From: an uncultured Candidatus Saccharibacteria bacterium
GTDB taxonomy: Bacteria > Patescibacteriota > Minisyncoccia > Phycocordibacterales > CAYSCM01
Length of the DNA stretch: 64,000 nucleotides
Direction of reading: 5' to 3'
Assembly (NCBI GenBank): GCA_964429815.1
Contig: CAYSCM010000001.1
Span: 32,001 to 96,000 of the forward strand
This document shows, in pieces, positions 1,029 to 64,000 of this stretch. Below the pieces are notes generated by a model. The model was not told the DNA's origin. It made no database searches and worked only from the letters and a program-made list of their open reading frames with translations. Positions within the stretch are counted from its first letter, which is position 1; each line of letters begins with the position of its first letter. The translations under genes were made by a program, and so were the position numbers.

Positions 1029-1160
1029 GGTCCCTCCTGTTTGTTTGTTGGCTACTGTTTGGCCGGACGCATTCTGACACATCCATTTTATTTGTCAATA
1101 TTCTTCCAGGCTGTCTGGCAATAGAAACCCGTGCTAAGCTTCGCGAGTAACAAACGCGCT

Positions 1161-1697: not shown

Positions 1698-1737
1698 CCC
1701 AGTGACCCTTTATATGCGTGGTATGGTTATCTCACCT

Positions 1738-2454: not shown

Positions 2455-2511
2455 CCGCAGTCACTAGACAAATCATCGATTTTCTGGTCTATTGACACCA
2501 GTAACAGATCG

Positions 2512-2544
2512 CCCTCTAAAAATGTTTAGAGGGTAGGCTCTTTT
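2512..2544 (+). terminator. possible weak terminator hairpin between the cytidylyltransferase and radical SAM genes
   Basis: CCCTCTAAA-AATG-TTTAGAGGG 9-bp stem followed by TAGGCTCTTTT. A TTGACA at 2489..2494 overlaps it. Confidence 0.3.
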
Positions 2545-2564
2545 ACAGTTTACAGGAGGAACCA

Positions 2565-4307: not shown

Positions 4308-4324
4308 TCCAGTTCTCTCACTCA

Positions 4325-4358
4325 GGGACCGCAGCAATGCGGTCCTTTTTTATTTTTA
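4325..4358 (+). terminator. rho-independent terminator
   Basis: GGACCGCA-GCAA-TGCGGTCC hairpin followed by TTTTTTATTTTTA. Confidence 0.7.
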
Positions 4359-4431
4359 TGGTCGTTCGCATCCTCATCCTGACCAATCATCGTGCTTTTT
4401 GATGTGAGCGTGCTTTAGGTATAGTGGAGCG

Positions 4432-6299: not shown

Positions 6300-6931
6300 G
6301 AGGCCGTCGGGATGGATTCCTTGTCGCGGTTTGAGAAAAACAGGTAGTCGACGATGGCGTGGAAGAAAACCGCGTGAAGCGCCTCAACGGGACCGTAGGC
6401 ACCTTTTCCTGTCTCAATGATTATCTTGTGGTGACAGAGGCTCTTCGCTTTGCCTCCGTCAAAACCAAGAACGCCTATCGCCGTGCCGCCCTTAGCGCAT
6501 ATGTACTCGATCGCGCGAAGCACATTGGGGGAATTGCCACTTGCGGAAATGACGATGAGCACATCGTCGGGACGAAAAATGTGCTTAAGCTGGTCCGCAA
6601 AAACGTTCTCGTAGCCGACATCGTTCCCGAGCGCCGTCACGGCGGCGATATTGTTGAGCGCGTGAATACGAAACGGCTTTTCTTCCGTACCACCCCCGTT
6701 CGTGGTGAGATCGGCCGCAAAGTGAGCCGCCATGGCAGCGCTCCCCCCGTTGCCGGCGATGTAGATCGTAGAGCCCCTCTCCCGGGCCTTTTGAAGCACG
6801 TCGATAATCTCCTCGACCGCTTTGGAATCTACGGCGGAAGCAAGCTCGAAGGCATGCGCAAGATACCCTTCCATAAATTCGGGTACCGATCCTTTTGTCT
6901 TTTGATAGATGGTATCGACGTGTCCTCTCAT
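6296..6931 (-). CDS. gmhA: D-sedoheptulose-7-phosphate isomerase (SIS domain)
   Basis: IYIAGNGGSAAMAAHFAADL matches the GmhA SIS signature. 4-nt overlap with the upstream sulfotransferase gene. Confidence 0.7.
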   Translation of the reverse strand: MRGHVDTIYQKTKGSVPEFMEGYLAHAFELASAVDSKAVEEIIDVLQKARERGSTIYIAGNGGSAAMAAHFAADLTTNGGGTEEKPFRIHALNNIAAVTALGNDVGYENVFADQLKHIFRPDDVLIVISASGNSPNVLRAIEYICAKGGTAIGVLGFDGGKAKSLCHHKIIIETGKGAYGPVEALHAVFFHAIVDYLFFSNRDKESIPTAS

Positions 6932-7932
6932 AGCGTTGTGAGCACCCCGCGGATGAGCTTCCCTTCCTCGAGGTCTTTGAGGGCGGCTCCTATCTCGTCG
7001 AAGGAATACTCTTTCGTAAGTAACTTATCCAAGCACATGACCTTCGGGTTTTCAACGTATTCACGCGCGTAGCGAGGAATGTCGCGGTCGAGCTCGCTCT
7101 CTCCGCCCCAGGTGCCGTAAAGCTTTTTGCCCTTGATGAGCCCGAAAGGGTTGATCGATATGGTTTCCCCGGGCGCAAGGTTTCCTGCAATAACGACGGT
7201 CCCGGCGTCCTTGACCGCGCGGTAGGCGCTCTCCATGGCGCCCTTGTTTCCCGAACACTCGACGGCCACATCGAAATCCTTTCCCTGAAACTCTTCGGCA
7301 GAGATCGCTTCATCGACGCCGAGCTCCTTTTTCGCATGCGCGAGCTTCCACGGAACGACGTCGATCGCGGTAACGTGAGCACCCTTCATGACGGCTCGAA
7401 TGAGTGCACTCGCTCCGATCCCCCCGATGCCGAATATAACCACTCGTTTGCCGTTGAGGTCTCCTAGGCGGTCGATGATACCCATGCCGGTCGGCACCGC
7501 GCACCCAAGAAGTGCCGCAATCGCGGGCTCCACCCCTTTTGACACCTTGGTGACACGATTCTCTGAGACGACCGCAAGCTCGGTAAACGTCGCCACGGAG
7601 CCACCGTTTACCTTCCCTTCTTTGCTTTGATACGTCGGCACCGGAGCGGATATACCCTCTCCAAGGATCCAACTTGCAACCACATAATCTCCGCTCCTTA
7701 CTTTCTGCACGCCTTCTCCGGCCGCGACCACCTCCGCTGCGGCTTCATGTCCCAATAAGTGGGGAATATATTCCGCTCCTTTCCTGCCGCGGATTTCATT
7801 GAGTTGGCTGTGGCAAAGTCCTGTCGCTAGCACTTTAATAAGTACCTGCCCCTTTTGAAGGGAGGGAACCTCAAGCTCCTCGATGGAGAGCGGTCCACCG
7901 ACGACGCGGAGTACTGCAGCGCGCGTTTTCAT
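6928..7932 (-). CDS. zinc-dependent medium-chain alcohol dehydrogenase/reductase
   Basis: GLCHSQ...GHEAAAEV zinc-ligand region and GIGGIGASALIRA Rossmann motif. ATG at 7932 (MKTRAAVL), the typical ADH N-terminus. Confidence 0.65.
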   Translation of the reverse strand: MKTRAAVLRVVGGPLSIEELEVPSLQKGQVLIKVLATGLCHSQLNEIRGRKGAEYIPHLLGHEAAAEVVAAGEGVQKVRSGDYVVASWILGEGISAPVPTYQSKEGKVNGGSVATFTELAVVSENRVTKVSKGVEPAIAALLGCAVPTGMGIIDRLGDLNGKRVVIFGIGGIGASALIRAVMKGAHVTAIDVVPWKLAHAKKELGVDEAISAEEFQGKDFDVAVECSGNKGAMESAYRAVKDAGTVVIAGNLAPGETISINPFGLIKGKKLYGTWGGESELDRDIPRYAREYVENPKVMCLDKLLTKEYSFDEIGAALKDLEEGKLIRGVLTTL

Positions 7933-7933: not shown

Positions 7934-8587
7934 CTAGGGGATAAACCAGTAGTAGTCACCCGTGTAGCCGACCTCGGCGAAGAGTTTTTTCCAATCATCG
8001 ACAGATAGGATGGTCTTTGCAGTAAGATTCCACTTCATCATGCGATCCTTCTCTTCTTCATGGTGGTAGGCGTCGACGGTAATGAACGAGTGTTTTCCTT
8101 TCACACGCTCAATCTCTCGAAGAGCCTCTTTACACTCAGGCAGTGGTAGGTTGTGAATGGTGTTAATCGAAATCACGAGATCGTAGGATTTATCCGCAAA
8201 TTGACTAAGATTTCTTGCATCTCCAACCGATACTGCGCCCGCAATTGAGGGCATGGCATTTTCGATAGCGTAGGAGGAAACATCAATACCGCGAACCACC
8301 ATGTGGGGAAGCCAATAGAGAAAATCATTAAGCATAAATCCCTTAGCACACCCGACATCAAGTACCGAAGAGTTGTTGTTGAGTCCGTAGTAATTTATGA
8401 AATCCCGAACCACCGGTACCCACCTCCCATCATAGCGGAAGCCGCCGTAGCCCTGATCCCTGGTGCCATCAAAAAACTCCCTGCCAAACTTTCGGGCAGT
8501 AGCAACATCCTCAGGAGACTTTTGTCCTCGAGCTTCAATGTTGCGTTTGGCTTTTGGATATTTCGAAAGAAGATCGATTTCTGCCAT
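7934..8587 (-). CDS. class I SAM-dependent methyltransferase
   Basis: VLDVGCAKG motif I and DLVISINTIHNLP motif. Confidence 0.6.
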   Translation of the reverse strand: MAEIDLLSKYPKAKRNIEARGQKSPEDVATARKFGREFFDGTRDQGYGGFRYDGRWVPVVRDFINYYGLNNNSSVLDVGCAKGFMLNDFLYWLPHMVVRGIDVSSYAIENAMPSIAGAVSVGDARNLSQFADKSYDLVISINTIHNLPLPECKEALREIERVKGKHSFITVDAYHHEEEKDRMMKWNLTAKTILSVDDWKKLFAEVGYTGDYYWFIP

Positions 8588-8596: not shown

Positions 8597-10366
8597 TTAT
8601 TTTTTTTCGGGAAGAAGCTTAACCATCATGTTGTCATTGAACTCTTTTCTTGCAAGTAGCGGCTCGGGATCCTCGAGCGGCCGACCGAACTTTACCTGCG
8701 GGATTACGCGGTGCTTCGGGTTAATCTCGATGTTACAAAACACAGGCCCCCTCATCGCGAGCACCTTCTTAACTCCCCCGCTCAACTCGCGGTTCTTCTT
8801 GATCGTAATGGTTTTGAAGCCAAAGGAGGAAGCAATTTTGGCAAAGTCTGGGAACGCAAGTCCTCCCCCTTCCGAAGACGCAAGATACGCCGAATTAAAC
8901 CACTGATCTTGAGTCTGCTGTATCATACTGTAGCCGTGGTTATTCAATACAAAAATCTTGATCGGAAGTTTGTGCTTGAGAAGGGTACTTAACTCTTGCA
9001 AATTCATTTGGAGTGAACCATCTCCGGTTACACAAATAATTGATTTCTTGTTAAGCGCCAGGCTTACCCCAATGCTCGCCGGCAAAGCCCACCCCATCGC
9101 GGTGTTGTTCCAATCGTGGTAAAGACGCTGACCTTTCTTGAAGGAAAATCCCTGCATCATCCATGCGACCGTGCAGCCGGTATCAATGACCATTACTTCG
9201 TTCTGACGCGTGTAGCGAGAGAGCTCCTCAACAAATACATACGGATTGACCCCTTTCTCTTTGTAGTACGCGGGTGGGCACATGGGATATTTTTTCTTCC
9301 ATGCGGCAATACGTCTAAGCCAGGGTGAGATGTCGTTTTTTGGCAAACGTGCGGCGTGCTTTTGAAATGCCTTCAGCAGCTCTTTTGCGTCACCGGAGAT
9401 ACGCACATCGACTTTCAGGCCAAATTTTTTAAACTTCTTAAGTTCGTAGGGGTCAATATCGATGACTATCTTTTTTGCCTCTCGCGCAAACGTGTTGGGA
9501 GGACTACCCGTCGATTTGGTATCAAGACGGCTTCCGATTGAGAGGATCATGTCAGCGTTCTGGACGGCAAAATTGGCAAACCGCGTGCCGTGAGTGCCAA
9601 AGGTGCCGATGCGAAGTGGATGACTCTCTGGCAGGAGATCCCCTGCCCCCCATGTGAGTGCCGCAGGAAAGCCGAGTGTTTCCAAAAGTGAGATGGCCTC
9701 TTTTTCGGCCCCCGCGAGGTGGATTCCCCACCCAAACACAACGACGGGGCGCTTCGCCTGCCGTAGATAGTTTATGCTTCGAGCTACATCAACCGGCGCT
9801 TTCTTCTTCTCGACGGAGGGTGTAAACGAGGGAAGCTCTCCTGGATTAATTTCTCTGCGCTGAATGTCGTCGGGAATATCGAGCACTACGGGTCCTGGCC
9901 TACCACTTCGCGCCAGAAAGATCGCTTTCTCAAGCTCGTAGCGTATGCGCCTCTCATCGGTGATGAGTATCGCGTACTTAGTGATAGGACGATACATTTC
10001 GACCGTTGCCGTTTCTTGAAAACCCACTTGCCGCACGTTGGTATGACCTTTCATCCTAAAGGTGGCTACTTGGCCGGTAATAAATATGACGGGTACCGAA
10101 TCGTAGTAGGCGGAGCACACTCCCGTGATCATGTTCGTAGCACCTGGCCCTGAGGTGGACATCGCTACACCGAGGCCACCCGTGGCCCTCGCGTACCCGT
10201 CGGCAGCCATTGCCCCCGCTTGCTCGTGTCCTGGACAGATGACCTCCATTCCCCCCGTGCGCGCCACCGAATGAATAAGGTGAAGGGATGCTCCGCCGGA
10301 GATGGCAAAGACATGCTTCACCCCTTCTTTGCGGAGAACCTGTGCTACGTAGTCGGTGAGCTTCAT
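8597..10366 (-). CDS. thiamine-diphosphate-dependent enzyme, acetolactate-synthase large-subunit-like (candidate sugar C-branching enzyme, YerE-like)
   Basis: N-terminal TPP pyrimidine-binding domain (AISGGASLHLIH...GPGATNMITG). Central domain. C-terminal TPP-binding GDGSLQMNLQELST...NNHGY motif. Confidence 0.7.
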   Translation of the reverse strand: MKLTDYVAQVLRKEGVKHVFAISGGASLHLIHSVARTGGMEVICPGHEQAGAMAADGYARATGGLGVAMSTSGPGATNMITGVCSAYYDSVPVIFITGQVATFRMKGHTNVRQVGFQETATVEMYRPITKYAILITDERRIRYELEKAIFLARSGRPGPVVLDIPDDIQRREINPGELPSFTPSVEKKKAPVDVARSINYLRQAKRPVVVFGWGIHLAGAEKEAISLLETLGFPAALTWGAGDLLPESHPLRIGTFGTHGTRFANFAVQNADMILSIGSRLDTKSTGSPPNTFAREAKKIVIDIDPYELKKFKKFGLKVDVRISGDAKELLKAFQKHAARLPKNDISPWLRRIAAWKKKYPMCPPAYYKEKGVNPYVFVEELSRYTRQNEVMVIDTGCTVAWMMQGFSFKKGQRLYHDWNNTAMGWALPASIGVSLALNKKSIICVTGDGSLQMNLQELSTLLKHKLPIKIFVLNNHGYSMIQQTQDQWFNSAYLASSEGGGLAFPDFAKIASSFGFKTITIKKNRELSGGVKKVLAMRGPVFCNIEINPKHRVIPQVKFGRPLEDPEPLLARKEFNDNMMVKLLPEKK

Positions 10367-10370
10367 GGCG

Positions 10371-11228
10371 CTACCAGGGCATCTGCTCCTTAACGCTTAT
10401 AAAGAGTGTCCCGTCACGGTAGCTCTCGGGCATATCGCCGGCTTTTGTGACAAGTCCCCACCCTATCTTCTGCGAGAACAAATTGACGCCGGAGCCTGTA
10501 AAGTGCTTGAAAATGTGCTTGGCATTCTCCGCGGTCCCAACCTCGACCAGGCCGTCACAGCTCTCCCAATCGGAAGCTTCGGTCGAGAGGAGTACTTCCT
10601 TCTCGTGCCCTTCGACGTCCATTTTGATGAGATCAGCGCCGGCGAGAATCGGCCCGAACGCTTCGAGCTCCACGGAGAACATTTCCCGATCCCCGTAGAC
10701 GTCGTGCTTTGCTCCCGAGAGGTGACTCCCCGTAGTGTTGCCGAGCACTCGGGTAAAATCTGCTGAACCCGAGCGACTTGAGACGGCGCTGTTGTGAAGG
10801 CTGGCAGAATTACATCCGTTACGCGCAAGATTTTTTTTGAGGATATCGAAATGAACCGGATCGGGCTCGTAGGAGGAAACCTTAAAACCACAACGACAAA
10901 GGATAATCGAGTGAAGTCCAATATTTGCTCCGAGGTCTACAACGCTCGTATAGCGATTGCGATTGCGCCAGTAAAAACTGAAAATAACGAGTTCATTGAG
11001 GTCAAAGAGATTCCGCGAATCGACATTACCCATGTTGTGGTATGGAAACGAGATATCTCCAAATGGCGGAAAGTGGACCGACTCTTTTGAATCAACGGGA
11101 AAGAGCCTCTCCACTTCCTTCCGAGCTTTGGCGGCACGTTCTTTGAATGGCGCGCTTGTCGGAGTATGAGAGGGTAATTCCTGCGGGAGCGTGGCAAAGA
11201 TATTCTCCAAAAAAGCCGAGGATTCCAT
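10371..11228 (-). CDS. FkbM-family methyltransferase
   Basis: VVDLGANIGLHS and IKMDVEGHE motifs characteristic of the FkbM family. Confidence 0.6.
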   Translation of the reverse strand: MESSAFLENIFATLPQELPSHTPTSAPFKERAAKARKEVERLFPVDSKESVHFPPFGDISFPYHNMGNVDSRNLFDLNELVIFSFYWRNRNRYTSVVDLGANIGLHSIILCRCGFKVSSYEPDPVHFDILKKNLARNGCNSASLHNSAVSSRSGSADFTRVLGNTTGSHLSGAKHDVYGDREMFSVELEAFGPILAGADLIKMDVEGHEKEVLLSTEASDWESCDGLVEVGTAENAKHIFKHFTGSGVNLFSQKIGWGLVTKAGDMPESYRDGTLFISVKEQMPW

Positions 11229-11244
11229 GACGGGAGATACCCTA

Positions 11245-12042
11245 TCAGATTTTTCGTAATTTTAATAGCTCGGGGTCACGCGCGAGCGTTTTTGAAAAGC
11301 GCGCGCTCCCCCACGCGTCATAGACAACGTGTACATCTCTTCCCCCGACTACCTTTTTTGCTGACCCAATGACCCAGTCGAGACAGTCGAGAACTCGCTC
11401 CATGGGTATAAAGTCCCCGCGCGCTAGCTTTTTCCTTGTTCGAGCATACGTATCGCCCGCGCGCCTGCCGGCGGTGATAGTCTCCTGATGGATTTTGCTG
11501 CGCACCCAACCGGGGCCTATGGTGACGAAGCGAGCATCGTTCAGCTCCGCGTCGAGGATTTCAAACATTTTTATGGTCGCTATCTTTGAAACGGTATACG
11601 CCGAGAAATTGCGTGGTGCGTTGTTCGTCCCCCCACCAGAAAATGAAATTATGCAGGGTTTTTTGGATTTCGAACGTCTGGGCAGAAGTCCGTGGATGAT
11701 GCCCATGTGAGAAAGAAAATTGAGGCGAATTGATTTTTCCCAGTCTCCGAAAGAAACGCGTTGAAAAGCTCCTATGGGCGTAAGGGTCGCCGGAGCCAGT
11801 ACAAGAACGTCCCAGGCCACCGCGAGGCTCCGCAACGTACGTAGCGCCCTATGTACAGAGGCAGGTCGAGCGACGTCACAGTGTATAAGGTGTGCGCCAA
11901 GTTTTTGCAATCCTTCTGTGGTGTGGCTGCCGGTTCTATACGTGCCGAAAACCGCCCAGCCGCGGTTTAAGTATCTTCGAGCTATGGCGGTGCCGATATC
12001 GCTTGAAATGCCGACGATGATTATTGAGCCAGTTTTTTTCAT
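11245..12042 (-). CDS. short-chain dehydrogenase/reductase (SDR)
   Basis: N-terminal IIIVGISSDIGTAI glycine-rich motif and YTVSK (YxxxK) catalytic motif. Confidence 0.6.
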   Translation of the reverse strand: MKKTGSIIIVGISSDIGTAIARRYLNRGWAVFGTYRTGSHTTEGLQKLGAHLIHCDVARPASVHRALRTLRSLAVAWDVLVLAPATLTPIGAFQRVSFGDWEKSIRLNFLSHMGIIHGLLPRRSKSKKPCIISFSGGGTNNAPRNFSAYTVSKIATIKMFEILDAELNDARFVTIGPGWVRSKIHQETITAGRRAGDTYARTRKKLARGDFIPMERVLDCLDWVIGSAKKVVGGRDVHVVYDAWGSARFSKTLARDPELLKLRKI

Positions 12043-12215
12043 GACGCGCTCTTTTGGTTGATGACGCTCGCGTTTTTCACGAATATGCCTATACTACACT
12101 ACTGCGCCACCGCAGGTTTCCAACCTACAAAACGCAGTGGAAAAGAAAAATTAATGGGTACGGTGAATTACAACGGGTCGAAACTTGACCCGTCTCTGGT
12201 AGAGTTGTACAGAAC

Positions 12216-13496
12216 ATGCGCCAAAAATTGAGCACCCTTGTCGAAAAACTGACGGTCGCGACCGGCATAAACTTTTCCTACCTCCTGCGCGGAGGGTCCT
12301 GGGCGTTTTCCGAGCAGGTGGTTACCAACGCCATCTCCCTCCTCCAGGCCATCGCGTTTGCCAACCTTATCTCTCCGCAGACGTATGGAGTGTTTAGTGT
12401 CGTGCAATCGTGGATAGGCATTCTCGTTACGTTCGCGCTCGGGAGCCTTCCAAACGCGCTTATAAAAAGCGTTGCGGAAGGCAACGACGGGGAGCTCAAA
12501 CGCGGATTTCTCCTCAAGCTTAAGTATGCTCCCCTTGCCTCTCTGCTCGGGCTCGGATTCTCCTTCTACTATCTATTTATAGGGAACAATACGACCCTCG
12601 CTTACTCGTTTCTCATTGCTTCGTTTTGCATGCCGCTTTACGTAGCGCTTCCGCAGGTCACGTTCTTCCTGTTCGCCAAGGGAGCATTTCTCGATAAGTT
12701 CATCGTGCAAGTGAGCGTTAGTCTTGCTTCGCTGGCAGGAATGACTATTTCAATGCTCTATTTCGGTTCTGTTCCATACCTGATGCTCGCCTACTTCATT
12801 CCACCGATCATCGTGAACGGCATCTTTTTTTGGCGCACGCTGCGCACCAAGGTTCATAATGCCAAGACCGGCGCGAACACGGAGCGGTTTGCGCTCCACC
12901 TTACGGGCATGAGTCTTCTTGGTTCGATAACCAAAAACATCGACCAACTCCTCATGTTCCACTTCAGCGGCGCAGTTCAGCTCGCGGTATATAAATTTGC
13001 CTTGATTCCCATACGAAAGCTGGAGACCTTTTTCCAGATCATCCTCGATCTGCTCCTCCCGCGATTTGCCAAGAGAGAGTACCGCGAGATTTACCAGGGG
13101 TTCGACAGAAAGCTCCTCCTTTCAGGCGCTTTTTCGTTGACGGTCGTGGCTGTTTATTTTTTCAGCATCCCCTACCTCTACAAGCTCTTTTTCCCGAAAT
13201 ACACCGACGCGGTGATATACTCGCGACTCCTTTCCCTGCTGTTTTTGTTTGGCCCTCTCTCATACGTTCAGCAGCTTTGGCTTGCGAAGGCGGAAACTAA
13301 ACGTCTCTATTTTTTAAAAATTCTCGGTGATTCCACCCGGATCTCACTTCATGTCGCGCTTATTCCCGTATTTGGGATCGCCGGTGCAGTGGGAAGCCGG
13401 ATGGTCGCATCCTCCTTTGTCAGCACCGCGGCATTCATTTTATTTTTGAAGGATAGGAGACGGTACGGTAAAGGCTCGAAGCGCCAATCGCAGTAA
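12216..13496 (+). CDS. polysaccharide/oligosaccharide flippase (Wzx-like MOP superfamily membrane protein)
   Basis: 426 aa, about 12 predicted hydrophobic helices, with Wzx-like topology and length. The only plus-strand gene in this part of the locus. Confidence 0.55.
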   Translation: MRQKLSTLVEKLTVATGINFSYLLRGGSWAFSEQVVTNAISLLQAIAFANLISPQTYGVFSVVQSWIGILVTFALGSLPNALIKSVAEGNDGELKRGFLLKLKYAPLASLLGLGFSFYYLFIGNNTTLAYSFLIASFCMPLYVALPQVTFFLFAKGAFLDKFIVQVSVSLASLAGMTISMLYFGSVPYLMLAYFIPPIIVNGIFFWRTLRTKVHNAKTGANTERFALHLTGMSLLGSITKNIDQLLMFHFSGAVQLAVYKFALIPIRKLETFFQIILDLLLPRFAKREYREIYQGFDRKLLLSGAFSLTVVAVYFFSIPYLYKLFFPKYTDAVIYSRLLSLLFLFGPLSYVQQLWLAKAETKRLYFLKILGDSTRISLHVALIPVFGIAGAVGSRMVASSFVSTAAFILFLKDRRRYGKGSKRQSQ

Positions 13497-13508
13497 AAAA
13501 CCTTACTA

Positions 13509-14732
13509 TCACGCGCTCCCGCGGGGAGCGAGGGTGTGCGGCCAGGTAAGTACGCCAAGATCTGCCTCCTCGATGTTCTCTTTCCATTTTCGCATATCCG
13601 AAACCGAGATAAGATGTGCAAATTCCTTTTTCAGGGTTTCGAGTGTTTCCTGTTCCCAGGAAACTTTCTGAAATGCTTGTCGTTGCCACGGAAACGAGTC
13701 ACCTTCCTTGAGCCAGCTGTAGTTGTTGGCGACGTCGGGCATCACGAAACTGGACGCAAAGTACGCTATATCATCCCGCAAAAAGGCCCACGAGAGAGGG
13801 CCACTCGAGACGCACAGGTAAAAGAGCGCGCGCTGTACTAGGGCTAGATCCTGCTCGCTGTTCGTCCCATAGTCTTTGGTAAAGATAACGTTTGGCCCGC
13901 GCAGCGCTTCATTGATCTCGGCTCCCCTGCCTAAAATAATGAAGGTGCACTCGGGATACTGCTTCGAACAGTACCTAAAAAATTCTCGCCAGACTTTCGG
14001 TTTAGCGTTTCGGTGCGAGGCAAAAAAGGGATTGCTGCGCAGGCTGACCGCTACGGCGTATCCAGGCGCATGTTTTTTGATAAATGCTCGTGCCCACGCA
14101 TCAGTGAGGGCGGGTATCTTCAGCTTCGGTAGAGATCCGTACCGCTCGTAGAATTCCTTGAAAAACAAGTAGCCACGACGGTAGGGAGAATTGCTATTTA
14201 CGTAGTCAAAAAGAGATGGGGTGAGGATATACTTTCCCCGGCGCTCAGCGAGAAAAGACTCGAATTCATCCCTGGAATCGAAAATGTGGACCGACCCCAA
14301 CTTTGGATTGGTACGCAAAACAGGAAAAATCTCAATGAAGTGGAGCGGGACATTTTCTTTGGTGATCCAACCCGCATATTTAGAATGTCGACTAGGTCTT
14401 TCTCTGTCGTATACAAAAGCGTAGTCGATCTTTTCAACTTCATGGATGTGGGCCTCGCATAGCGTCCTGATCTGGTGCTCGATCAGTATCCCAAATGAGA
14501 CATCGGTGGTGAGAAAATCATTAATGCCCAGAATCCTTCGATCATTTCGCTCGTGGCGACGCAGAACGTAGCGGGCATAGCGCATCGAACCAACAATGCC
14601 TCGACGATACCAACGTTCATACACGCGATACGTCAAAAAATTGACTGCGACATCAAAGGCGGGTACCAAAAAGGGGGGCAGCATTTTTCGAAAATGCACA
14701 ACCGCAGGTTTCTTGTTGAGTGCGCGCAACAT
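13509..14732 (-). CDS. hypothetical protein; C-terminal half weakly GT9 (heptosyltransferase)-like
   Basis: LFYLCVSSGPLSWAFL resembles the GT9 donor-site motif (DSGPMHLAAA). No N-terminal match. Embedded next to ADP-heptose genes. Confidence 0.35.
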   Translation of the reverse strand: MLRALNKKPAVVHFRKMLPPFLVPAFDVAVNFLTYRVYERWYRRGIVGSMRYARYVLRRHERNDRRILGINDFLTTDVSFGILIEHQIRTLCEAHIHEVEKIDYAFVYDRERPSRHSKYAGWITKENVPLHFIEIFPVLRTNPKLGSVHIFDSRDEFESFLAERRGKYILTPSLFDYVNSNSPYRRGYLFFKEFYERYGSLPKLKIPALTDAWARAFIKKHAPGYAVAVSLRSNPFFASHRNAKPKVWREFFRYCSKQYPECTFIILGRGAEINEALRGPNVIFTKDYGTNSEQDLALVQRALFYLCVSSGPLSWAFLRDDIAYFASSFVMPDVANNYSWLKEGDSFPWQRQAFQKVSWEQETLETLKKEFAHLISVSDMRKWKENIEEADLGVLTWPHTLAPRGSA

Positions 14733-14733
14733 G

Positions 14734-15231
14734 TTAGCGTCGGTAGGTTGAATTTTTTTTGATTGCCGTAATGATATCGCGTGTGCTTAATTTTTTGTCT
14801 TTCGTAAAGGTAATCCTGCAACCCACCTTCTGAGCGCTTTGTATTTCCTCTGCGAAATCTTTATTCGGCGGGATACCGCGGTAATCGGGACCGCGCACAT
14901 ACAGGTCCGGCTTGAGAGCACGTATGAATCTTGATCCATTGTTAGCATCATTAATGAACACGAAATCAACCGGGCGAAGCTGCGAGAGCATGTAGGCCCG
15001 CATATGCTCGGTGAACACCGGGCGGCCGATACCTTTTTGTCTTCGTACCTGTTTATCACTTGCGATCGCAACCACGAGCACATCACAGAGGCGCTTTGCG
15101 GATTCAAAATGCATCGCATGCCCGGGGTGGAGCAGATCATAGTTGCCGTTACAAAAACCGATGATCTTCCCCTCCTTTTTACGTCGAGCAAGTATGGGAC
15201 GAAGCTGCTGAAAGGAGATGATGCGTGCCAT
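14734..15231 (-). CDS. D-glycero-beta-D-manno-heptose-1-phosphate adenylyltransferase (HldE/RfaE domain II-like cytidylyltransferase fold)
   Basis: GFCNGNYDLLHPGH nucleotidyltransferase HxGH motif. About 165 aa, as in stand-alone RfaE-II. Confidence 0.65.
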   Translation of the reverse strand: MARIISFQQLRPILARRKKEGKIIGFCNGNYDLLHPGHAMHFESAKRLCDVLVVAIASDKQVRRQKGIGRPVFTEHMRAYMLSQLRPVDFVFINDANNGSRFIRALKPDLYVRGPDYRGIPPNKDFAEEIQSAQKVGCRITFTKDKKLSTRDIITAIKKNSTYRR

Positions 15232-15233
15232 AG

Positions 15234-16238
15234 CTACGGCTGATGGATATACTCGCGTGGATACTTTTTAAGTACATCCCACGACTCAGTGAGCCAAGAG
15301 ATAACTTCCTCAACCCCTCGCTCGAGCGGAATGCGCGGTTTCCACCCAAGAGCCTTCGCGGTCCCTCCAAACGAAAGCGCATAGACCTTATCCTGTCCAG
15401 GACGACCTTCACTCACTTTGGCGACTTCATTGAAACGAACCCCCATCTTGCGACACACGAGCTCAACGACGCCTCGAATGGAGCTCTGAGTGTGTGTCGA
15501 AAAATGATACACGCCACCAGACTTCCCTTTCTGGATCACGAGCTCAATACCGCGACATACATCCTCGATGTGTATGAAGCTACGCTTGATGGTGCCCCCT
15601 TGGTGAAGCGAGAGTTTAGTACCAACAAGGACCGAGAGGACCGTTTTTGGGATTACTTTGAAGAGCTGCTGATGCGCTCCATAGACATTCGCCGAGCGCA
15701 CAAAGCACACCGGAAAACCCTTGGTCTTATGGAGCGCGATGAGGAAGAGATCCCCTGCTCCCTTTGAGGCGGCGTAGGGCGTCGTCGGATTAAAGTAGGT
15801 AAGCGTCTCGGGGCCGCTGTATGAACCGTAAATTTCCGGCGTCGATATTTGTATGTACTTTTTTAAATAGGCCGTGTCTTTGAGGTGATCCGCGAGAGCA
15901 ACAATACCCAAGCAGTTGGTTCTAAACCAATCAAGCGGTTTTTTCCAACTAGCCTCAACGATGCCTTGGGCCGCGAAATTCACGACTATGTCAGGACGCT
16001 CGCTATCAAGGAGAGCGGCAAGTTTTTTTACATCTTTGTTTACGTCGAGCTTATGGAAACGATAGCGGCGCGCGGAGGGTTTTTTCCCTTTGTAGAGGTA
16101 GGGCAAAAATTCAGGCTCCTTCTCAGATGAGCGACTAATACCGATGACTATGTAATTTGTTTTCCGAAGCAGGTAATCGACGAGGTGTCCTCCCGAAAAA
16201 GAATTACTCCCGATGATAGCTATTTTTTTCAGAGCCAT
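15234..16238 (-). CDS. NAD-dependent NDP-sugar epimerase/dehydratase (extended SDR)
   Basis: IIGSNSFSGGHL Rossmann motif and YAASK catalytic motif. Confidence 0.6.
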   Translation of the reverse strand: MALKKIAIIGSNSFSGGHLVDYLLRKTNYIVIGISRSSEKEPEFLPYLYKGKKPSARRYRFHKLDVNKDVKKLAALLDSERPDIVVNFAAQGIVEASWKKPLDWFRTNCLGIVALADHLKDTAYLKKYIQISTPEIYGSYSGPETLTYFNPTTPYAASKGAGDLFLIALHKTKGFPVCFVRSANVYGAHQQLFKVIPKTVLSVLVGTKLSLHQGGTIKRSFIHIEDVCRGIELVIQKGKSGGVYHFSTHTQSSIRGVVELVCRKMGVRFNEVAKVSEGRPGQDKVYALSFGGTAKALGWKPRIPLERGVEEVISWLTESWDVLKKYPREYIHQP

Positions 16239-16249
16239 GTGAGCAAAGT

Positions 16250-17317
16250 TTAAAACGGACCGGTAAAACGCTTATCGGGCACATCGAGCGGCGTCGTGCG
16301 TTTCTTCTCTTCCGCTGCGACGAGCGACTCTAATTTTTTTGTATCCCCCTCAACCATAGAGACCACCATTCTGGCCATATCGATATAGCGCGGGTAGTAC
16401 TCATTGGCAAGCGCAGGCGTTGATGGGCTTGGCAGATCCGGCGCGGTAAGCCGGCGAGGGTTGGTCCGTAGACTGATTGTCGAATCCTCCGCGACTTGTG
16501 TGATTATCTCTCCCGCGACCCCGAAGCTGCGATGCCCGAGATCGGCCACAAGCAGCCGTCCTGTTTTTTTGACTGAGCGTGCTATTGTCTCGGTATCAAG
16601 AGGTTTAAGACTTCGCACATCGACGACCTCGGCGCTCACGCCAACCTTTTGGAGTAACTCCTGCGCACGCAGAGCCTCGTAGGTGAAGTAGGACGTTGTT
16701 ACAAGGGAAACATCGCTTCCCCGGCGCATTATACGAGCCTTGCCGATGGGCACCCTATAGTGACCCTCGGGAACATCTTCAGCAAGATCATGGAGCCATC
16801 GATGATCGATATATATGACCGGATTATCGTCCTCAATCGCGGCGAGCATCAGTCCCTTGGCATCGGAGGGGGTCGCGGGCATCACTACCTTGAGCCCGGG
16901 GATGTGCGCATAGAGGGCTTGGAGATTTTGTGAATGCTGCGGGCCCTGCCCCCATCCCATGCCGATGGTCATTTTCACCGTAAGGGGTACCGATTGCGCT
17001 CCGTTGTACATGTACGACCATTTCGCCGCATTGTTGATCACCTGCTCGATCGCAAGAAGGCTGAAGTCAACTCTCTGGTGCGTTAGGACTGGGCGCATCC
17101 CATTTACCGCCGCACCGATGCAGATCCCGGTTACCGCGAGCTCAGAAGTTGGCATATCAAGTACTCGTTTTGCGCCATGTTTTTTCTGAAGTCCCGTCGT
17201 CGTGCCAAAAATTCCCTTTGGATCAGGGACACCCAATCCTATAAGGAACACCGACTTGTCTTTAGCCAGAGCAAGATCAAATGCTTCTCGTATTGCTTGC
17301 GAATATGTTTTACGCAT
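16250..17317 (-). CDS. TPP-dependent 2-oxoacid dehydrogenase E1 component, beta subunit-like (transketolase-like C-terminal domains)
   Basis: E1-beta-like pyrimidine-binding and C-terminal transketolase domains. ATG 17317 overlaps the upstream alpha-subunit stop by 8 nt (ATGCGTAA), implying translational coupling. The track ORF extends to 17401. Confidence 0.7.
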   Translation of the reverse strand: MRKTYSQAIREAFDLALAKDKSVFLIGLGVPDPKGIFGTTTGLQKKHGAKRVLDMPTSELAVTGICIGAAVNGMRPVLTHQRVDFSLLAIEQVINNAAKWSYMYNGAQSVPLTVKMTIGMGWGQGPQHSQNLQALYAHIPGLKVVMPATPSDAKGLMLAAIEDDNPVIYIDHRWLHDLAEDVPEGHYRVPIGKARIMRRGSDVSLVTTSYFTYEALRAQELLQKVGVSAEVVDVRSLKPLDTETIARSVKKTGRLLVADLGHRSFGVAGEIITQVAEDSTISLRTNPRRLTAPDLPSPSTPALANEYYPRYIDMARMVVSMVEGDTKKLESLVAAEEKKRTTPLDVPDKRFTGPF

Positions 17318-18269
17318 AGAGGTGTTCGGCAAGAGCTTCCCTCTTTGGAAACGGGCTCTTTTCGGCAAAACGGAATGCTCCATCAACCTGTCGAATCGCA
17401 TCGTTTCGGATTTTTTCGATGAGGTCGCTAGAAAGCACCTCTTTCTTCAGGAGCTCACGCTCGAACATCGCGACAGGATCCTTCTTCTTCCACACGGCAA
17501 CCTCCTTCGGATCACGGTACCCAAGCTCGTCATCAAAATTTGGGCCGCAGTGCTCACGGTAGCGGTAGGTCGAAAATTCCAAAAAAACTGGACCCGAACG
17601 GACGGCTTTTCTGGCTTTTGTTGCGGCAGCGAGAACGGTCGAAACATCGTTACCATCGTGGCGCGACGCAGGAATGCCGTGCCCTTTGGCAAGCGCGTAG
17701 ATGGGGCGTTTAGGTTGGCGCTCAGAGAGATGTGTGTACACCGAGAAGCGGTTATCTTCGCACACAAATACAATGGGTAGTTTGTGGAGCGCCGCAAAAT
17801 TGAGACTTTCATGGAAAGCCCCCTCCTCGACGGTACCATCCCCAAAAAACGAAACGATGACGCGGTTTTCCTTCCGGAGCTTCGCTGCAAACGCCGCTCC
17901 CGTTGCAATCGGAATGCTGTTGCCGACGATGGGTGTGGCCCCGCCAAAACCGGCCTTGAGATCAATGAGGTGCATGGAGCCGCCCTTGCCACCGCAGCAG
18001 CCCGTAGCTTTGCCATAGAGCTCAGCCATCATCGCATTGAGGTTGCCGCCTTTAGCGAGGTAATGAGCGTGACAGCGATGGGTACTATACACGAGATCCT
18101 CTGCCGTGAGCGCCGCGCACACCCCAACCGCAACGGCCTCTTGGCCGATCGAGAGGTGGACGGGACAGCGCATCTTTCCTTCGCTATAGCGACGAGCTAT
18201 CGTCTCTTCCGTCGTGCGTATGAGAATGAGCTTGCGGTAGAGCGATAGGAGTGCTTCATTTTTCTTCAT
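17310..18269 (-). CDS. TPP-dependent 2-oxoacid dehydrogenase E1 component, alpha subunit-like
   Basis: GDG...EG TPP-binding motif region (SFFGDGTVEEGAFHESLNFAAL) and PIVFVCEDN motif typical of E1 alpha. No E2 or E3 genes in the window. Confidence 0.7.
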   Translation of the reverse strand: MKKNEALLSLYRKLILIRTTEETIARRYSEGKMRCPVHLSIGQEAVAVGVCAALTAEDLVYSTHRCHAHYLAKGGNLNAMMAELYGKATGCCGGKGGSMHLIDLKAGFGGATPIVGNSIPIATGAAFAAKLRKENRVIVSFFGDGTVEEGAFHESLNFAALHKLPIVFVCEDNRFSVYTHLSERQPKRPIYALAKGHGIPASRHDGNDVSTVLAAATKARKAVRSGPVFLEFSTYRYREHCGPNFDDELGYRDPKEVAVWKKKDPVAMFERELLKKEVLSSDLIEKIRNDAIRQVDGAFRFAEKSPFPKREALAEHLYA

Positions 18270-18270: not shown

Positions 18271-19248
18271 CTACGTAAGCCCTAGCTTCTGCATCATCTT
18301 GACGTTGTGGTAGAGAGGATTGTTGAGACCGTCTGTTATGTCGCCCCGTTCGTATGCTGCCTTTATAGAGCGCACTGCCTCGGGGATATCAAACTGGGCC
18401 TTAAAGCCGAGTACACGCTCTATCTTGTCGGCATTGAGCTTGTAGGAGCGGTTATCGACGATCGAAGCCGATACCTTGATCGAAACTGCGGGGTCGTTGA
18501 GAACATCCTTGATGAGTTTCCCCGTATCGAGCACCGAAATATTCCAGAACCCGGTATTGAAGACTTCGCGATGAATTTTCTCCTGCGGAGCTGCGAGGAG
18601 CGTCTCGTAAATACGCACCATGTCGCGGATATTTATATGGGGTCGCAACTGGCTCCCGCCGAAGATGGTTATTTTCTTGTTTACGAGCGCATGCATGGTA
18701 AGTAAGTTCACGGTGAGGTCAAGTCGCAAACGCGTCGCGTAACCACACACCGTGCCCGGACGCACCGTCACGTAGTTGAGGTTGGTACCCTCAAGAACCT
18801 TTTCACACTCGAGCTTGTACTTGCCGTAATCCGTGATCGGCCTTCCCACCCTCTCCTCGGTCACTTCCCCCTCTTGGATACCATAGGTGCTCGCGGAGCT
18901 TGCGTAGATAAACCGACCGATGTCGTTTTCCTTCGCCGCATCGATGACGTTGAAGAACGCGTCGTAGTTGATCGATTTCCCGAGCGTTGGGTCGAGCTCG
19001 AAGCTCGGGTCGTTCGACACGCACGCAAGGTGAATGAGGGAATCGCAGCCTTTGGCCGACTCGATTAACTTTTTTCGGTCACGGATATCTCCCCGGATCT
19101 CAGTGAGGTTTTTCTGCTTGATGCCGGAAAAAACATCGCCGTAGAGATAGAGGTCGTACACAACGACGCTATGGCCCGCTTCGAGAAGTTTCGGAACGAG
19201 AGCGCTGCCGACGTATCCCGCTCCGCCTGTGATGAAGATCTTGGTCAT
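18271..19248 (-). CDS. NAD-dependent NDP-sugar epimerase/dehydratase
   Basis: ITGGAGYVGSAL Rossmann motif and YGKYK catalytic motif. Confidence 0.6.
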   Translation of the reverse strand: MTKIFITGGAGYVGSALVPKLLEAGHSVVVYDLYLYGDVFSGIKQKNLTEIRGDIRDRKKLIESAKGCDSLIHLACVSNDPSFELDPTLGKSINYDAFFNVIDAAKENDIGRFIYASSASTYGIQEGEVTEERVGRPITDYGKYKLECEKVLEGTNLNYVTVRPGTVCGYATRLRLDLTVNLLTMHALVNKKITIFGGSQLRPHINIRDMVRIYETLLAAPQEKIHREVFNTGFWNISVLDTGKLIKDVLNDPAVSIKVSASIVDNRSYKLNADKIERVLGFKAQFDIPEAVRSIKAAYERGDITDGLNNPLYHNVKMMQKLGLT

Positions 19249-20353: not shown

Positions 20354-21724
20354 CTAGGAAATAAAACTGAGCACAGCGGAAGCGATGTGAGAGGCCGACA
20401 TTCCGTCGAATTTCCAGCAGTAGCGATCTTTGAAAACTTTGCGCCGGTCGCTGTGAATCTCGGGGTGCGCAAGGTAGATGTTGATCCATTTCGCAAGTTC
20501 TCCCTTGGAGCCCACGAGAGCGGTCGAGCCGATGGAGAGCCAGGAAACTTGATTTTCCTCCAATCTCCAGCGCCTCACGAGGCTGCGCAGGAACGGTACC
20601 TTTGTTTCCCACCCGTCGAAATTGATGGTGATGAGCGGTTTATCGAAAATAGAAGAATCGATGATGATGGAAGAGATGGTATTGATGACCAGCGAGCTCC
20701 AGTAGAGTGAATCGTAAATGTGTTGAAAGAAGCTCATGTCGAGTTCCCCCTCTCGCTTGTCACGCTCAAGGTCATTGAGCTTGGCGGGGCCTGGAATATC
20801 AATAATAAAGTGCTCGTCTGGTGTGAATTTGGAGAGGTCGACGGGGAGGAACGGGTGGAGCCGAACCAAAATTTGCAAATCGTCGGGGATTTTCTTCTCC
20901 GCAAAGAGGTCTTTGAGGATCTGGCAGGTCTGCCAGTCGGTGTCGATGAAAAAATGTCCGGCGGGCGCGAAGAGGACGAGGCGTTTCTTCGGGTCAGCGC
21001 CGATTTTCTTAAAAAATTCTTCACGCGGGGTCGGCTGCATGGTGAGGTACTTTTCAAACTGCGGGACACCTGATAGCACGATCGTGGTCTCTTTGATGTG
21101 GTGGTAGCGCACCATATCCTCTTTCATGACCTCGTTATGGACGATGAGCCGATCCGGCACGAAGCGAGCATAGCTACGGGACGTCGTATTGTCCCACGAA
21201 CGCACCATCGCGACCGTTCTCACCCCGCGTGCTTTGGCATTTTTGAGAAGGAAGAGGTCCGAGTGATTAAAAAGGTCGGTCGCGAACACGACGCTGGGCC
21301 GATATGTCTCAACATATCGATTGAACGTGTCCTGATTATTGAGCCTATAGTCGAGAAAACGCAGGAATTTCTTGACTGGCGTGATCGGAGCGAACAGGGC
21401 CGTGAAGAGAAGCGACGTATAGTACTTCGGCCAGTTACCCGTCTTCGTCCGCGCCTCGAGTTTATGGATCCACATGACGTTCGTGTCGAGGAGCCACTCG
21501 GCCAGTCTTTGGAACAGCCGGTTGCGGAAACTGGTTACGTTCTTTCCAAGTTCCACCCCCTCGACAATGACGCCCGGGTAGCGTATTTTAAAATATTCCT
21601 CCTGGGGTTTTGCAACAAAAAGGACGACCCGCGCCTCCTTGGTGAGAAGATCGAGCACTCCCGTGTTGAGGATATTTTTTGTTATAAACGGATGAAAATC
21701 CGTAATGAAAACCGTCGGCTTCAT
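20354..21724 (-). CDS. hypothetical transferase (possible GT-B-like glycosyl- or glycerophospho-transferase; family unresolved)
   Basis: 456 aa soluble protein inside the glycan locus. Placement and size fit TagF/KpsS-type transferases, but no motif could be matched by eye. Confidence 0.3.
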   Translation of the reverse strand: MKPTVFITDFHPFITKNILNTGVLDLLTKEARVVLFVAKPQEEYFKIRYPGVIVEGVELGKNVTSFRNRLFQRLAEWLLDTNVMWIHKLEARTKTGNWPKYYTSLLFTALFAPITPVKKFLRFLDYRLNNQDTFNRYVETYRPSVVFATDLFNHSDLFLLKNAKARGVRTVAMVRSWDNTTSRSYARFVPDRLIVHNEVMKEDMVRYHHIKETTIVLSGVPQFEKYLTMQPTPREEFFKKIGADPKKRLVLFAPAGHFFIDTDWQTCQILKDLFAEKKIPDDLQILVRLHPFLPVDLSKFTPDEHFIIDIPGPAKLNDLERDKREGELDMSFFQHIYDSLYWSSLVINTISSIIIDSSIFDKPLITINFDGWETKVPFLRSLVRRWRLEENQVSWLSIGSTALVGSKGELAKWINIYLAHPEIHSDRRKVFKDRYCWKFDGMSASHIASAVLSFIS

Positions 21725-29876: not shown

Positions 29877-29960
29877 GAGAGTGAGTGTTACACGTAAACT
29901 AAATCGACATCGGGAAAGTTGCAATGAGGAGCCTGCGTTTTACTTGTGGCGCTGAGGGGA

Positions 29961-44260: not shown

Positions 44261-44290
44261 GAGTATAGCAATTTTGCCGCCATCGCGATG

Positions 44291-50528: not shown

Positions 50529-51973
<1,445 letters not shown>

Positions 51974-51986
51974 AGCTAAGAATTCG

Positions 51987-61459: not shown

Positions 61460-64000
<2,541 letters not shown>

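Follow-up and report, generated by a model that had tools for sequence, protein, structure and literature searches.

We analysed a 64-kb window, the whole stretch of 64 000 nucleotides at positions 32 001–96 000 of contig CAYSCM010000001.1 (assembly GCA_964429815.1) from an uncultured Candidatus Saccharibacteria bacterium, and all coordinates given here are positions in that window unless another locus is named. A very large glycan locus occupies roughly 1–41.7 kb. It encodes extended short-chain dehydrogenases/reductases (SDRs), a Wzx-type flippase, many GT4 glycosyltransferases, a DegT protein, sulfotransferases, methyltransferases and an asparagine-synthase-like amidotransferase, together with a GmhA-like SIS protein, a PfkB kinase and an HldE-type nucleotidyltransferase. 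Within it lie three genes for thiamine diphosphate (ThDP)-dependent enzymes, namely a protein resembling the large subunit of acetolactate synthase (the ALS-like protein) and a stand-alone E1 α/β pair, which are the subject of this report and which a preliminary description of the same DNA had proposed to serve the biosynthesis of C-branched sugars. The features of this region are listed in Table 1, as assigned by Pfam and NCBIfam profile searches with the curated NCBIfam cut-offs as thresholds. The profile matches bear out the surroundings given in that description, in which SDRs, a flippase and glycosyltransferases enclose the ThDP genes.

Table 1. Features of the region containing the ThDP genes, in order of position. 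The last column gives the number of loci with a homologue among the 43 flanked loci defined in the text.
Feature	Position	Strand	Match or remark	Loci (of 43)
GmhA-like SIS ketose/aldose-phosphate isomerase	6296–6931	-	TIGR00441, 94.8 bits (cut-off 209)	21 (divergent SIS genes in more loci)
Zn-dependent medium-chain (MDR) alcohol dehydrogenase (Zn-ADH), candidate branch ketoreductase	6928–7932	-	ADH_N, ADH_zinc_N	26
Class I S-adenosylmethionine (SAM) methyltransferase, 217 aa (MT217)	7934–8587	-	Tightest partner of the YerE-like enzyme	40
Putative YerE/JanthE-like ThDP carboligase (ALS-like protein), 589 aa	8597–10366	-	TPP_enzyme_N/M/C	
FkbM-family methyltransferase	10371–11228	-	TIGR01444, 78.5 bits (above cut-off)	26
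Classical short-chain dehydrogenase (short SDR), candidate branch ketoreductase	11245–12042	-	adh_short	36
Wzx-type flippase	12216–13496	+	Polysacc_synt; 6 predicted transmembrane segments	
Soluble 407-aa protein	13509–14732	-	No Pfam or NCBIfam match, no transmembrane segment	
HldE-domain-II-like nucleotidyltransferase	14734–15231	-	rfaE_dom_II, 112 bits (cut-off 181.5); TagD, 37 bits	31
Atypical RmlB-like extended SDR	15234–16238	-	GDP_Man_Dehyd/Epimerase	31
E1 β, stand-alone	16250–17317	-	Transket_pyr, 1.9e-29; Transketolase_C, 7.1e-29	35
E1 α, stand-alone, ThDP-binding, 319 aa	17310–18269	-	E1_dh, 2.7e-68	34
Cj1427-like extended SDR, proposed ketone-acceptor maker	18271–19248	-	PDB 6vo6/6vo8, 126 bits, full length	30
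HldE-domain-I-like PfkB sugar kinase, 348 aa	19251–20297	-	rfaE_dom_I, 101 bits (cut-off 345)	30
Glyphos_transf/BFO_1060-like transferase, accessory in CPR versions	20354–21724	-	PF04464, NF046086	
DegT-type sugar aminotransferase, accessory	21721–22821	-	DegT_DnrJ_EryC1, 3.6e-106	

The ThDP-dependent enzymes

The ALS-like protein contains all three domains of its family (TPP_enzyme_N, 2.6e-34; M, 1.3e-34; C, 2.8e-39), which confirms its initial reading as a relative of the ALS large subunit. Its ThDP motifs are intact, with Glu48 in place and GDG-X24-NN at residues 448–476, and Glu48, G448-D449-G450 and N475-N476 are invariant across 17 family members. Against TIGR00118, the model for the large subunit of acetohydroxyacid synthase (AHAS), it scores 448.8 bits, which is below the cut-off of 538.35, and it is likewise far under the cut-offs of the remaining AHAS equivalog models. 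Two acceptor-site or specificity residues of AHAS, Trp574 and Arg377 (Arabidopsis thaliana numbering), are replaced by Thr485 and Lys284, respectively.

The best match to the ALS-like protein in the PDB is entry 8rph (373 bits, 35% identity), followed by 5ahk (310 bits, 33% identity), which we take to be PpYerE, and by plant AHAS (~300 bits). According to the literature 8rph is JanthE, a YerE-like enzyme which joins 2-oxoacids to ketones in vitro to give tertiary alcohols. JanthE also has a threonine at the position of Trp574. Its gene is flanked by ddhA/B/C-like genes on one side and by genes for a reductase, an acetaldehyde dehydrogenase and an HMGL-type aldolase on the other, and this neighbourhood is an erwiniose-type branching cluster as in Steitz et al. 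In a neighbour-joining tree (23 sequences, 589 columns, 100 bootstraps; the YerE and ErwE sequences were not in the sample), the window family is sister to the JanthE family with 100% bootstrap support and PpYerE joins them at 96%, while Escherichia coli IlvI and IlvB group apart from these with Arabidopsis AHAS (82%). A phylogeny had been among the checks put forward in the preliminary description, and this small distance tree suggests that the protein belongs with the ketone-accepting YerE-like carboligases and not with AHAS.

Phosphonate or sulfonate head-group chemistry, in the form of a phosphonopyruvate or sulfopyruvate decarboxylase or of Xsc, was also considered for the ALS-like protein, prompted by the cytidylyltransferase, Glyphos_transf, Zn-ADH and sulfotransferase genes of the locus. 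We rejected it on account of the complete set of N, M and C domains in a protein whose nearest relatives are AHAS and the YerE-like enzymes, of the much lower scores of Xsc models (264 bits against 449), and of the lack of a phosphoenolpyruvate mutase among the scanned open reading frames (ORFs).

Sequence and gene calls place the start of the E1 β gene at 17317, although the longest ORF would begin at 17401. The two E1 genes overlap by 8 nt at the β ATG and the α stop codon (ATGCGTAA), which makes translational coupling plausible; both genes of the pair that had been described as coupled are confirmed. The α chain keeps the GDG…EDN motif, and the β chain keeps PTSE, with the ThDP-activating glutamate, and the histidine of QHSQ. 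The cofactor and catalytic residues, whose absence would have told against the original proposal, are present in the ALS-like protein and in both E1 chains. The scores of the pair against the models for pyruvate dehydrogenase (PDH) E1 α (TIGR03182, 326.1 bits) and β (PRK09212, 280 bits) lie under the cut-offs of 393.85 and 321, respectively.

Partner subunits were sought by tblastn (E ≤ 1e-3) in the window and 91 related loci (1.66 Mb), with two E2 sequences, a lipoate ligase, IlvN and IlvH as queries, and none of these gave a match. For E3, there is no Pyr_redox-type ORF among the Pfam-scanned ORFs, no query search having been aimed at it. The early statement that E2 and E3 partners are lacking consequently holds for E2 by tblastn, and for E3 only as far as the scanned ORFs go. 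Since all three ThDP proteins score below the curated ilvB and pdhA/B cut-offs and neither E2 nor IlvN/H is found at the locus, they do not appear to be housekeeping enzymes.

Comparison of E1 pairs points in the same direction. The E1 pairs on plasmids of Desulfotalea and Rhizobium that are directly followed by E2 and a lipoate ligase or equivalent are 39–44% identical to the window pair by tblastn, whereas stand-alone pairs from glycan clusters are 43–52% identical (Azospirillum, ~50%; Solidesulfovibrio, 43% for α and 49% for β). The window α chain is 52% identical to the Azospirillum glycan-cluster α chain as against 44% to the E2-linked α chains. The closest actinomycete pair found is that of Streptomyces griseofuscus plasmid pSGRIFU1 (L090, 11986–17516; numbers beginning with L denote individual related loci), with identities of 54% and 47%.

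The E1 β chain carries a C-terminal extension of ~30 residues (16250–16354 in the window; LDVPDKRFTGPF) which ends in the motif hDVP(D/G)xxFxGPF-COOH, the window protein ending in …DVPDKRFTGPF. This motif is present in 43 of 51 aligned orthologues from the conserved cassette described below (for example L003, L005, L049, L081, L084 and L089) and in Azospirillum, and the pSGRIFU1 β chain ends in a similar …FAGPY. It is not present in the E2-linked E1 β chains examined, nor in a lower-identity variant of the cassette (L022, L045, L047, L067 and Solidesulfovibrio). The E1 pair lies directly between the Cj1427-like and RmlB-like SDR genes. By analogy it may resemble the precedents AviB1/B2 and Pau11/12, which it recalls in standing alone beside a keto-sugar-forming SDR.

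A conserved cassette and its putative acceptor genes

Homologues of the ALS-like protein are found in at least 120 database clusters at 59–69% identity, in many phyla. A survey of GTDB with one genome per species gave 527 relatives, and the best 80 of these, which were taken further, are 48–67% identical to it and come from more than 15 phyla. The genes around it form a cassette which is present in at least 80 species representatives, archaea included. Its parts are the GmhA-like isomerase, the HldE-like kinase and nucleotidyltransferase, the Cj1427-like C4-dehydrogenase, the atypical RmlB-like SDR, the E1 α/β pair, the YerE-like enzyme, two methyltransferases and two reductases. Carriers include Saccharibacteria, Omnitrophota, Planctomycetota, Elusimicrobiota, Chloroflexota, Nitrospirota, Desulfobacterota, Verrucomicrobiota, Acidobacteriota, Cyanobacteria (Prochlorococcus and Phormidium), the proteobacteria Pseudocolwellia agarivorans, Tistlia and Marinibaculum, and the archaea Methanoregula and Woesearchaeota; Pseudocolwellia agarivorans QM50 and Phormidium sp. 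FACHB-1136 are cultured carriers of the full cassette. Because the cassette is conserved across phyla, the co-location of the ThDP genes is no oddity of this genome. The expectation that such a locus would be unusual for a bacterium of the candidate phyla radiation (CPR) was not borne out, CPR bacteria being among its many carriers.

The nearest relatives of the window are Saccharibacteria and Nomurabacteria contigs, which have the whole locus architecture in common with it at 45–75% identity. Further SAM methyltransferases, B12-radical-SAM enzymes and GT2 glycosyltransferases recur beside the cassette, and no E2, E3 or branched-chain amino-acid genes are among these recurrent neighbours. Some cassette loci also hold ddhA/ddhB-like CDP-hexose genes.

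The window proteins were used as queries to count cassette members in 43 loci whose flanking sequence extends for 8 kb or more on each side (Table 1); these loci are not phylogenetically independent. The counts indicate that the cassette consists of two separable modules, one made up of the heptose-type genes and the E1 pair, and the other of the YerE-like gene with the methyltransferase and reductase genes. The Cj1427-like SDR occurs in 28 of the 34 loci which have the E1 pair and in none of the nine which lack it (Fisher p = 9e-6, subject to the non-independence of the loci). The corresponding figures are 28/34 and 1/9 for the PfkB kinase and 29/34 and 2/9 for the nucleotidyltransferase. The heptose and E1 genes occur without a YerE-like gene on a plasmid of Azospirillum oryzae KACC 14407 and, as a variant, on pDMC1 of Solidesulfovibrio magneticus RS-1. 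The Azospirillum order is SDR, SDR, fused nucleotidyltransferase–PfkB, SIS, SDR, E1 α, E1 β, two DegT, radical SAM, NUDIX and GT4s. A YerE-like gene with methyltransferase(s) and an SDR, and with neither E1 nor heptose genes, is found in nine of the 43 loci.

Within the second module, two proteins, P0029 and P0047, carry MT217 as a C-terminal extension of the YerE-like enzyme, and residues 628–844 of P0029 are 58% identical to the separate MT217 of the window. The FkbM gene, where present, is usually immediately 5′ of the YerE-like gene. Sequence searches of the PDB with MT217, Zn-ADH and the short SDR returned generic matches or none, those of Zn-ADH being class III alcohol dehydrogenases only.

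Within the first module, SIS genes are present in at least 32 related loci. In the window, 4 kb separate the gene for the nucleotidyltransferase from that for the PfkB kinase, and fusions of the two are found at L005 3656–5197, L013 13770–15332, L012 1778–3289 and L089 8783–10318. Immediately upstream of E1 α is the gene for the Cj1427-like SDR, the PDB matches of which (6vo6 and 6vo8) we take to be Campylobacter jejuni Cj1427, an NDP-heptose C4-dehydrogenase. Cj1427 operates by a ping-pong mechanism with 2-oxoglutarate and L-2-hydroxyglutarate. Genes for an L-2-hydroxyglutarate oxidase (lhgO) are present in five ALS-type cassette loci (L026, L070, L047, L041 and L036) and in the Solidesulfovibrio cluster (L091, 22377–23579), and there is none in the window. 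Their presence in related loci is in keeping with a Cj1427-type dehydrogenase, since the oxidase would recycle the L-2-hydroxyglutarate made in the ping-pong reaction.

The RmlB-like SDR finds its best PDB matches among dTDP-glucose 4,6-dehydratases (141 bits) and scores 188.7 bits against TIGR01181, the cut-off of which is 365. It has STPE in place of STDE. From its sequence, this family appears to be a subfamily of extended SDRs with no characterised member, and its proteins could be dehydratases using the glutamate alone, epimerases, reductases or makers of a second ketone. Two acceptors had been suggested for the ThDP enzymes at the outset. One of these, an ADP-heptose-derived ketosugar, agrees with the gene content, and an NDP-heptose oxidised at C4 by the Cj1427-like dehydrogenase is the likely acceptor to judge from these homologies. 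The other, a classical NDP-4-keto-6-deoxyhexose, is less likely because the RmlB-like protein is without the dehydratase aspartate.

Proposed pathway, alternatives and flanking genes

In our view, the balance of the data tips moderately towards a locus that makes a multiply C-branched, methylated higher-carbon sugar built on NDP-heptose, each step being proposed from homology, phylogeny and gene co-occurrence. The GmhA-like isomerase, PfkB kinase and HldE-type nucleotidyltransferase would produce NDP-heptose, probably ADP-heptose, or a close analogue, with the phosphatase encoded elsewhere or by one of the flanking HAD genes. The Cj1427-like SDR would oxidise C4 to give NDP-4-ketoheptose, its bound NADH probably being re-oxidised by 2-oxoglutarate. 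The E1 pair would then decarboxylate pyruvate on ThDP and pass the hydroxyethylidene carbanion to the ketone, yielding a 4-C-acetyl tertiary alcohol; C2 addition by E1-type enzymes has been proposed for AviB1/B2 and Pau11/12 and reported in vitro for KbDH. The YerE-like enzyme would decarboxylate a second 2-oxoacid and transfer the resulting acyl anion to a ketone on this sugar. The target could be the acetyl carbonyl introduced by the E1 pair or a different ketone in the ring, for which the atypical RmlB-like SDR may be responsible. The short-chain dehydrogenase and Zn-ADH would reduce the side-chain ketones, as YerF does in yersiniose synthesis, and MT217 and the FkbM protein would methylate the product at hydroxyls or at carbon. 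Modification, transfer and export of the sugar would fall to DegT, the glycosyltransferases and Wzx.

This scheme is fitted, though not proven, by the matched numbers of two carboligases, two reductases and two methyltransferases and by the fusion of the YerE-like enzyme with MT217. The central idea of the preliminary description, that the presence of both ThDP enzyme types implies one or two acyloin-type branching steps, survives and has gained from the placement of the ALS-like protein with the YerE-like enzymes JanthE and PpYerE and from the non-housekeeping character of the E1 pair, the activity of which is predicted. Its choice of a C2 unit from pyruvate as the donor is reasonable for the E1 pair and less secure for the YerE-like enzyme, the relatives of which take C3–C8 2-oxoacids. 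A bolder version, which we offer tentatively and regard as possible rather than probable, is that two successive acyloin additions, with the YerE-like enzyme acting on the ketone made by E1, lead to a doubly branched O-/C-methylated sugar of at least 11 carbons, which would belong to a novel class of surface sugar in bacteria and archaea, and that the FxGPF tail is a new structural element in the place of E2 docking. The carriers of such a sugar would then range from CPR bacteria through Omnitrophota to Planctomycetota, Cyanobacteria and methanogens.

Several observations weigh against a branched NDP-heptose. The GmhA and HldE halves are the best-scoring named families for the isomerase, kinase and nucleotidyltransferase, yet all three proteins fall far below the equivalog cut-offs, and in most orthologues the nucleotidyltransferase is fused N-terminally to the PfkB kinase, which is the reverse of the HldE order. 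On account of these distant scores and this domain order the activated sugar may not be a heptose, although the fact that these families score best among named ones keeps GmhA/HldE-like working plausible. A GmhB-type phosphatase is not in the conserved core of the cassette. In the RmlB-like SDR, STPE is invariant in 41 orthologues, the glycine-rich dinucleotide motif reads GSNSFSG, and the YxxxK of the window protein is YxxxR in most orthologues. The entries 6vo6/6vo8 are taken here to be Cj1427 and 5ahk to be PpYerE, and the association of the Cj1427-like SDR with the E1 pair was counted over loci that are not phylogenetically independent. Finally, the pSGRIFU1 E1 pair adjoins genes for a 1103-aa condensation-domain protein, an acyl carrier protein (ACP), a phosphopantetheinyl transferase and ketosynthases, and not sugar genes. 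With these neighbours it was rejected as a precedent for sugar branching, and a stand-alone E1 of this clade is accordingly not automatically a sugar brancher. The pSGRIFU1 E1 may instead hand an acyl group to the condensation-domain/ACP system in place of E2.

Four other readings were weighed against a doubly equipped branching pathway. The most durable, which we nevertheless regard as unlikely, is that a single ThDP system branches the sugar while the second produces or shortens a small molecule, such as an acyloin or a side chain derived from a 2-oxoacid, that is attached later, or that the two modules serve two sugars of one glycan. The modules are indeed separable, with Azospirillum and Solidesulfovibrio lacking the YerE-like gene and nine of the 43 loci lacking the E1 and heptose genes, and the ddhA/ddhB-like genes of some loci could supply a separate acceptor. 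However, the modules are interleaved in one operon-like block in ~80% of the flanked loci, the conserved core is without an acyltransferase or ligase that could attach a free side chain, and there are precedents in both enzyme families for direct action on a sugar ketone.

It is improbable, in our estimate, that the ThDP enzymes act upstream of activation, building or extending a ketose phosphate in the manner of 1-deoxyxylulose-5-phosphate synthase (DXS) or transketolase for subsequent isomerisation, phosphorylation and nucleotidylation, as may be compared with the lincomycin octose. The distance of the SIS, kinase and nucleotidyltransferase proteins from GmhA/HldE, together with the reversed fusion order, would allow a non-heptose substrate, and the E1 chains belong to the transketolase/DXS superfamily and show weak DXS and transketolase matches. 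Against this, a 1-deoxyketose derived from pyruvate cannot serve a GmhA-type aldose–ketose isomerase, the strongest correlate of the E1 pair is the Cj1427-like NDP-sugar C4-dehydrogenase, and members of the YerE-like clade are known to use ketones of NDP-sugars as acceptors.

An acetoin/2,3-butanediol module (acetolactate synthase, a butanediol-dehydrogenase-like SDR and an acetoin-dehydrogenase E1) that lies in a glycan locus by chance is very improbable. The SDR does match meso-2,3-butanediol dehydrogenase weakly (42.8 bits; cut-off 270) and the acetoin-dehydrogenase E1 is of the same α/β superfamily, but an acetolactate decarboxylase, E2 and E3 are all lacking (for E3 by the scanned ORFs, as above), the tight linkage to heptose-type genes is repeated across phyla, and the ALS-like protein groups with the YerE-like clade and not with catabolic ALS. 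Least credible of all are housekeeping ilvB and pdhAB with partner subunits encoded elsewhere, which the top NCBIfam names (acetolactate synthase large subunit and PDH E1 α/β) would suggest but to which the three sub-threshold scores, the changed AHAS specificity residues, the failure to find IlvN/H and E2 in the window and 91 syntenic loci, and the operon with glycan genes, kept in this arrangement from CPR to archaea, are all opposed.

Several accessory genes set the CPR versions of the cassette apart. A lineage-specific add-on (1131–5394, 13509–14732 and 20354–22821), common to L049 and L003 and rare elsewhere, comprises genes for a Hydrolase_3 phosphatase, a CTP_transf_3 protein (CMP-sugar synthetase type), the BFO_1060/Glyphos_transf-like transferase, DegT and the 407-aa protein. 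The Glyphos_transf-like transferase is 66–68% identical in L003 (Nomurabacteria) and L049 (Saccharibacteria), and the 407-aa protein is conserved, at 45% identity, in the cassettes of both groups. DegT is kept in CPR versions, and in Azospirillum and Solidesulfovibrio it is encoded beside the E1 pair. The window and L049, unlike L003, also encode a radical SAM protein of 580 aa. A CMP-ulosonic acid pathway was rejected as the role of the ThDP enzymes. The CTP_transf_3 and Hydrolase_3 genes flank the cassette solely in CPR versions and a few others; since they do so in four of the 43 loci, and since no NeuB or KdsA was seen in the window, we regard them as part of the lineage-specific add-on.

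Elsewhere in the glycan locus, an NDP-hexose C-methyltransferase gene (29975–31243; Methyltransf_14 and Zn-binding Methyltransf_13) adjoins tandem GDP-mannose 4,6-dehydratase paralogues (31247–32251 and 32252–33283), and these three genes may constitute a second, independent C-branching route. There are two sulfotransferase genes (5391–6299 and 29070–29924), as compared with one in the Nomurabacteria locus, which suggests that the surface glycan of these CPR bacteria is sulfated. Directly downstream, the locus is followed (41719–44305) by genes for a protein with a lamin-tail domain (LTD) and for a type IV coupling ATPase resembling TraG/TrwB. The three rRNA genes, all on the minus strand, are not linked to one another (16S, 50519–51980; 5S, 60916–61021; 23S, 61464–64000, cut at the window end). 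The 23S–5S genes are ~9 kb upstream of 16S, with SecD/F, a Bac_transf sugar transferase, a GT4 and FtsW/RodA in between, and genes for tRNA-Leu and tRNA-Ile are at 48309–48616. The unlinked rRNA genes and the Saccharibacteria-like cassette fit a CPR/Patescibacteria origin.

Relation to known systems

Should the branched NDP-heptose pathway be correct, the two known ThDP routes to C-branched sugars would regularly operate together on a heptose-type scaffold, in a pathway with carriers throughout a large part of the uncultivated bacteria and among some archaea. Its products would constitute a new family of higher-carbon sugars at the cell surface, with a potential role in CPR bacteria as antigens, phage receptors or envelope stabilisers, and the pathway would offer a large and diverse source of ketone-accepting carboligases for chiral tertiary alcohols, a current aim of biocatalysis. 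As the cassette or its E1 module is present in cultured strains, the prediction is directly testable.

The literature precedents for sugar branching by ThDP enzymes are YerE (yersiniose A), ErwE (erwiniose), AviB1/B2, Pau11/12 and KbDH. According to a 2025 review, the YerE-like enzymes make Gram-negative lipopolysaccharide sugars on 3,6-dideoxy-4-ketohexoses, and the known E1-type (α-KADH2) branchers belong to actinomycete antibiotic clusters, in which they act on deoxyhexose or pentose ketosugars. Our literature search found no cluster that combines YerE-like and E1 enzymes and no C-branched heptose, although a 2024 in-silico survey may list such clusters.

Like YerE, ErwE, PpYerE and JanthE, the ALS-like protein has the three-domain decarboxylase-type ThDP fold with the catalytic glutamate and GDG-X24-NN, and its gene lies in a surface-glycan locus adjoining keto-sugar-forming SDRs and reductases; in common with JanthE it is without an equivalent of AHAS Trp574. 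It differs from JanthE, to which it is just 35% identical, in having the canonical GDG where JanthE has CDG, and from PpYerE in being 33% identical. The context of the window enzyme is heptose-type (GmhA/HldE/Cj1427-like) and theirs is ddhABC 3,6-dideoxyhexose. Moreover, it is constantly paired, and sometimes fused, with the 217-aa methyltransferase and is usually near an E1 α/β pair. With AHAS (IlvB/IlvI/IlvG) it shares the superfamily, the cofactor motifs and the best-scoring named models, and it differs in falling under the equivalog cut-off, in having no regulatory subunit and in its separate clade.

The E1 pair is similar to AviB1/AviB2, Pau11/Pau12, KbDH-α/β and the aldgamycin enzyme in being a heteromeric E1 without E2 or E3 among NDP-sugar genes, with an enzyme predicted to make a 4-ketosugar encoded next to it and with its ThDP and catalytic residues intact; this likeness is one of gene organisation and motifs. 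Unlike these branchers, it is found in surface-glycan loci of many phyla within a heptose-type pathway, and its β chain carries the conserved C-terminal FxGPF tail. It has in common with the E1 components of PDH, branched-chain 2-oxoacid dehydrogenase (BCKDH) and acetoin dehydrogenase the superfamily, the cofactor motifs and the best-scoring named models, and is set apart from them by scores below the equivalog cut-offs, the lack of E2 and E3, and a separate clade.

The C. jejuni capsular heptose pathway is similar in that a GmhA/kinase/nucleotidyltransferase route to NDP-heptose, which is predicted for the cassette, is followed by a Cj1427-like SDR, and the lhgO genes of related loci fit the 2-oxoglutarate-dependent recycling of Cj1427. 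The activation genes of the window are of the PfkB/HldE (ADP-heptose) type and not of the GHMP/GDP type, and where C. jejuni continues with epimerases and C4-reductases, the cassette has two ThDP carboligases. Taken together, the types of chemistry are known, whereas the acceptor pathway, the pairing of the two enzyme types and their wide, largely uncultivated distribution appear to be new.

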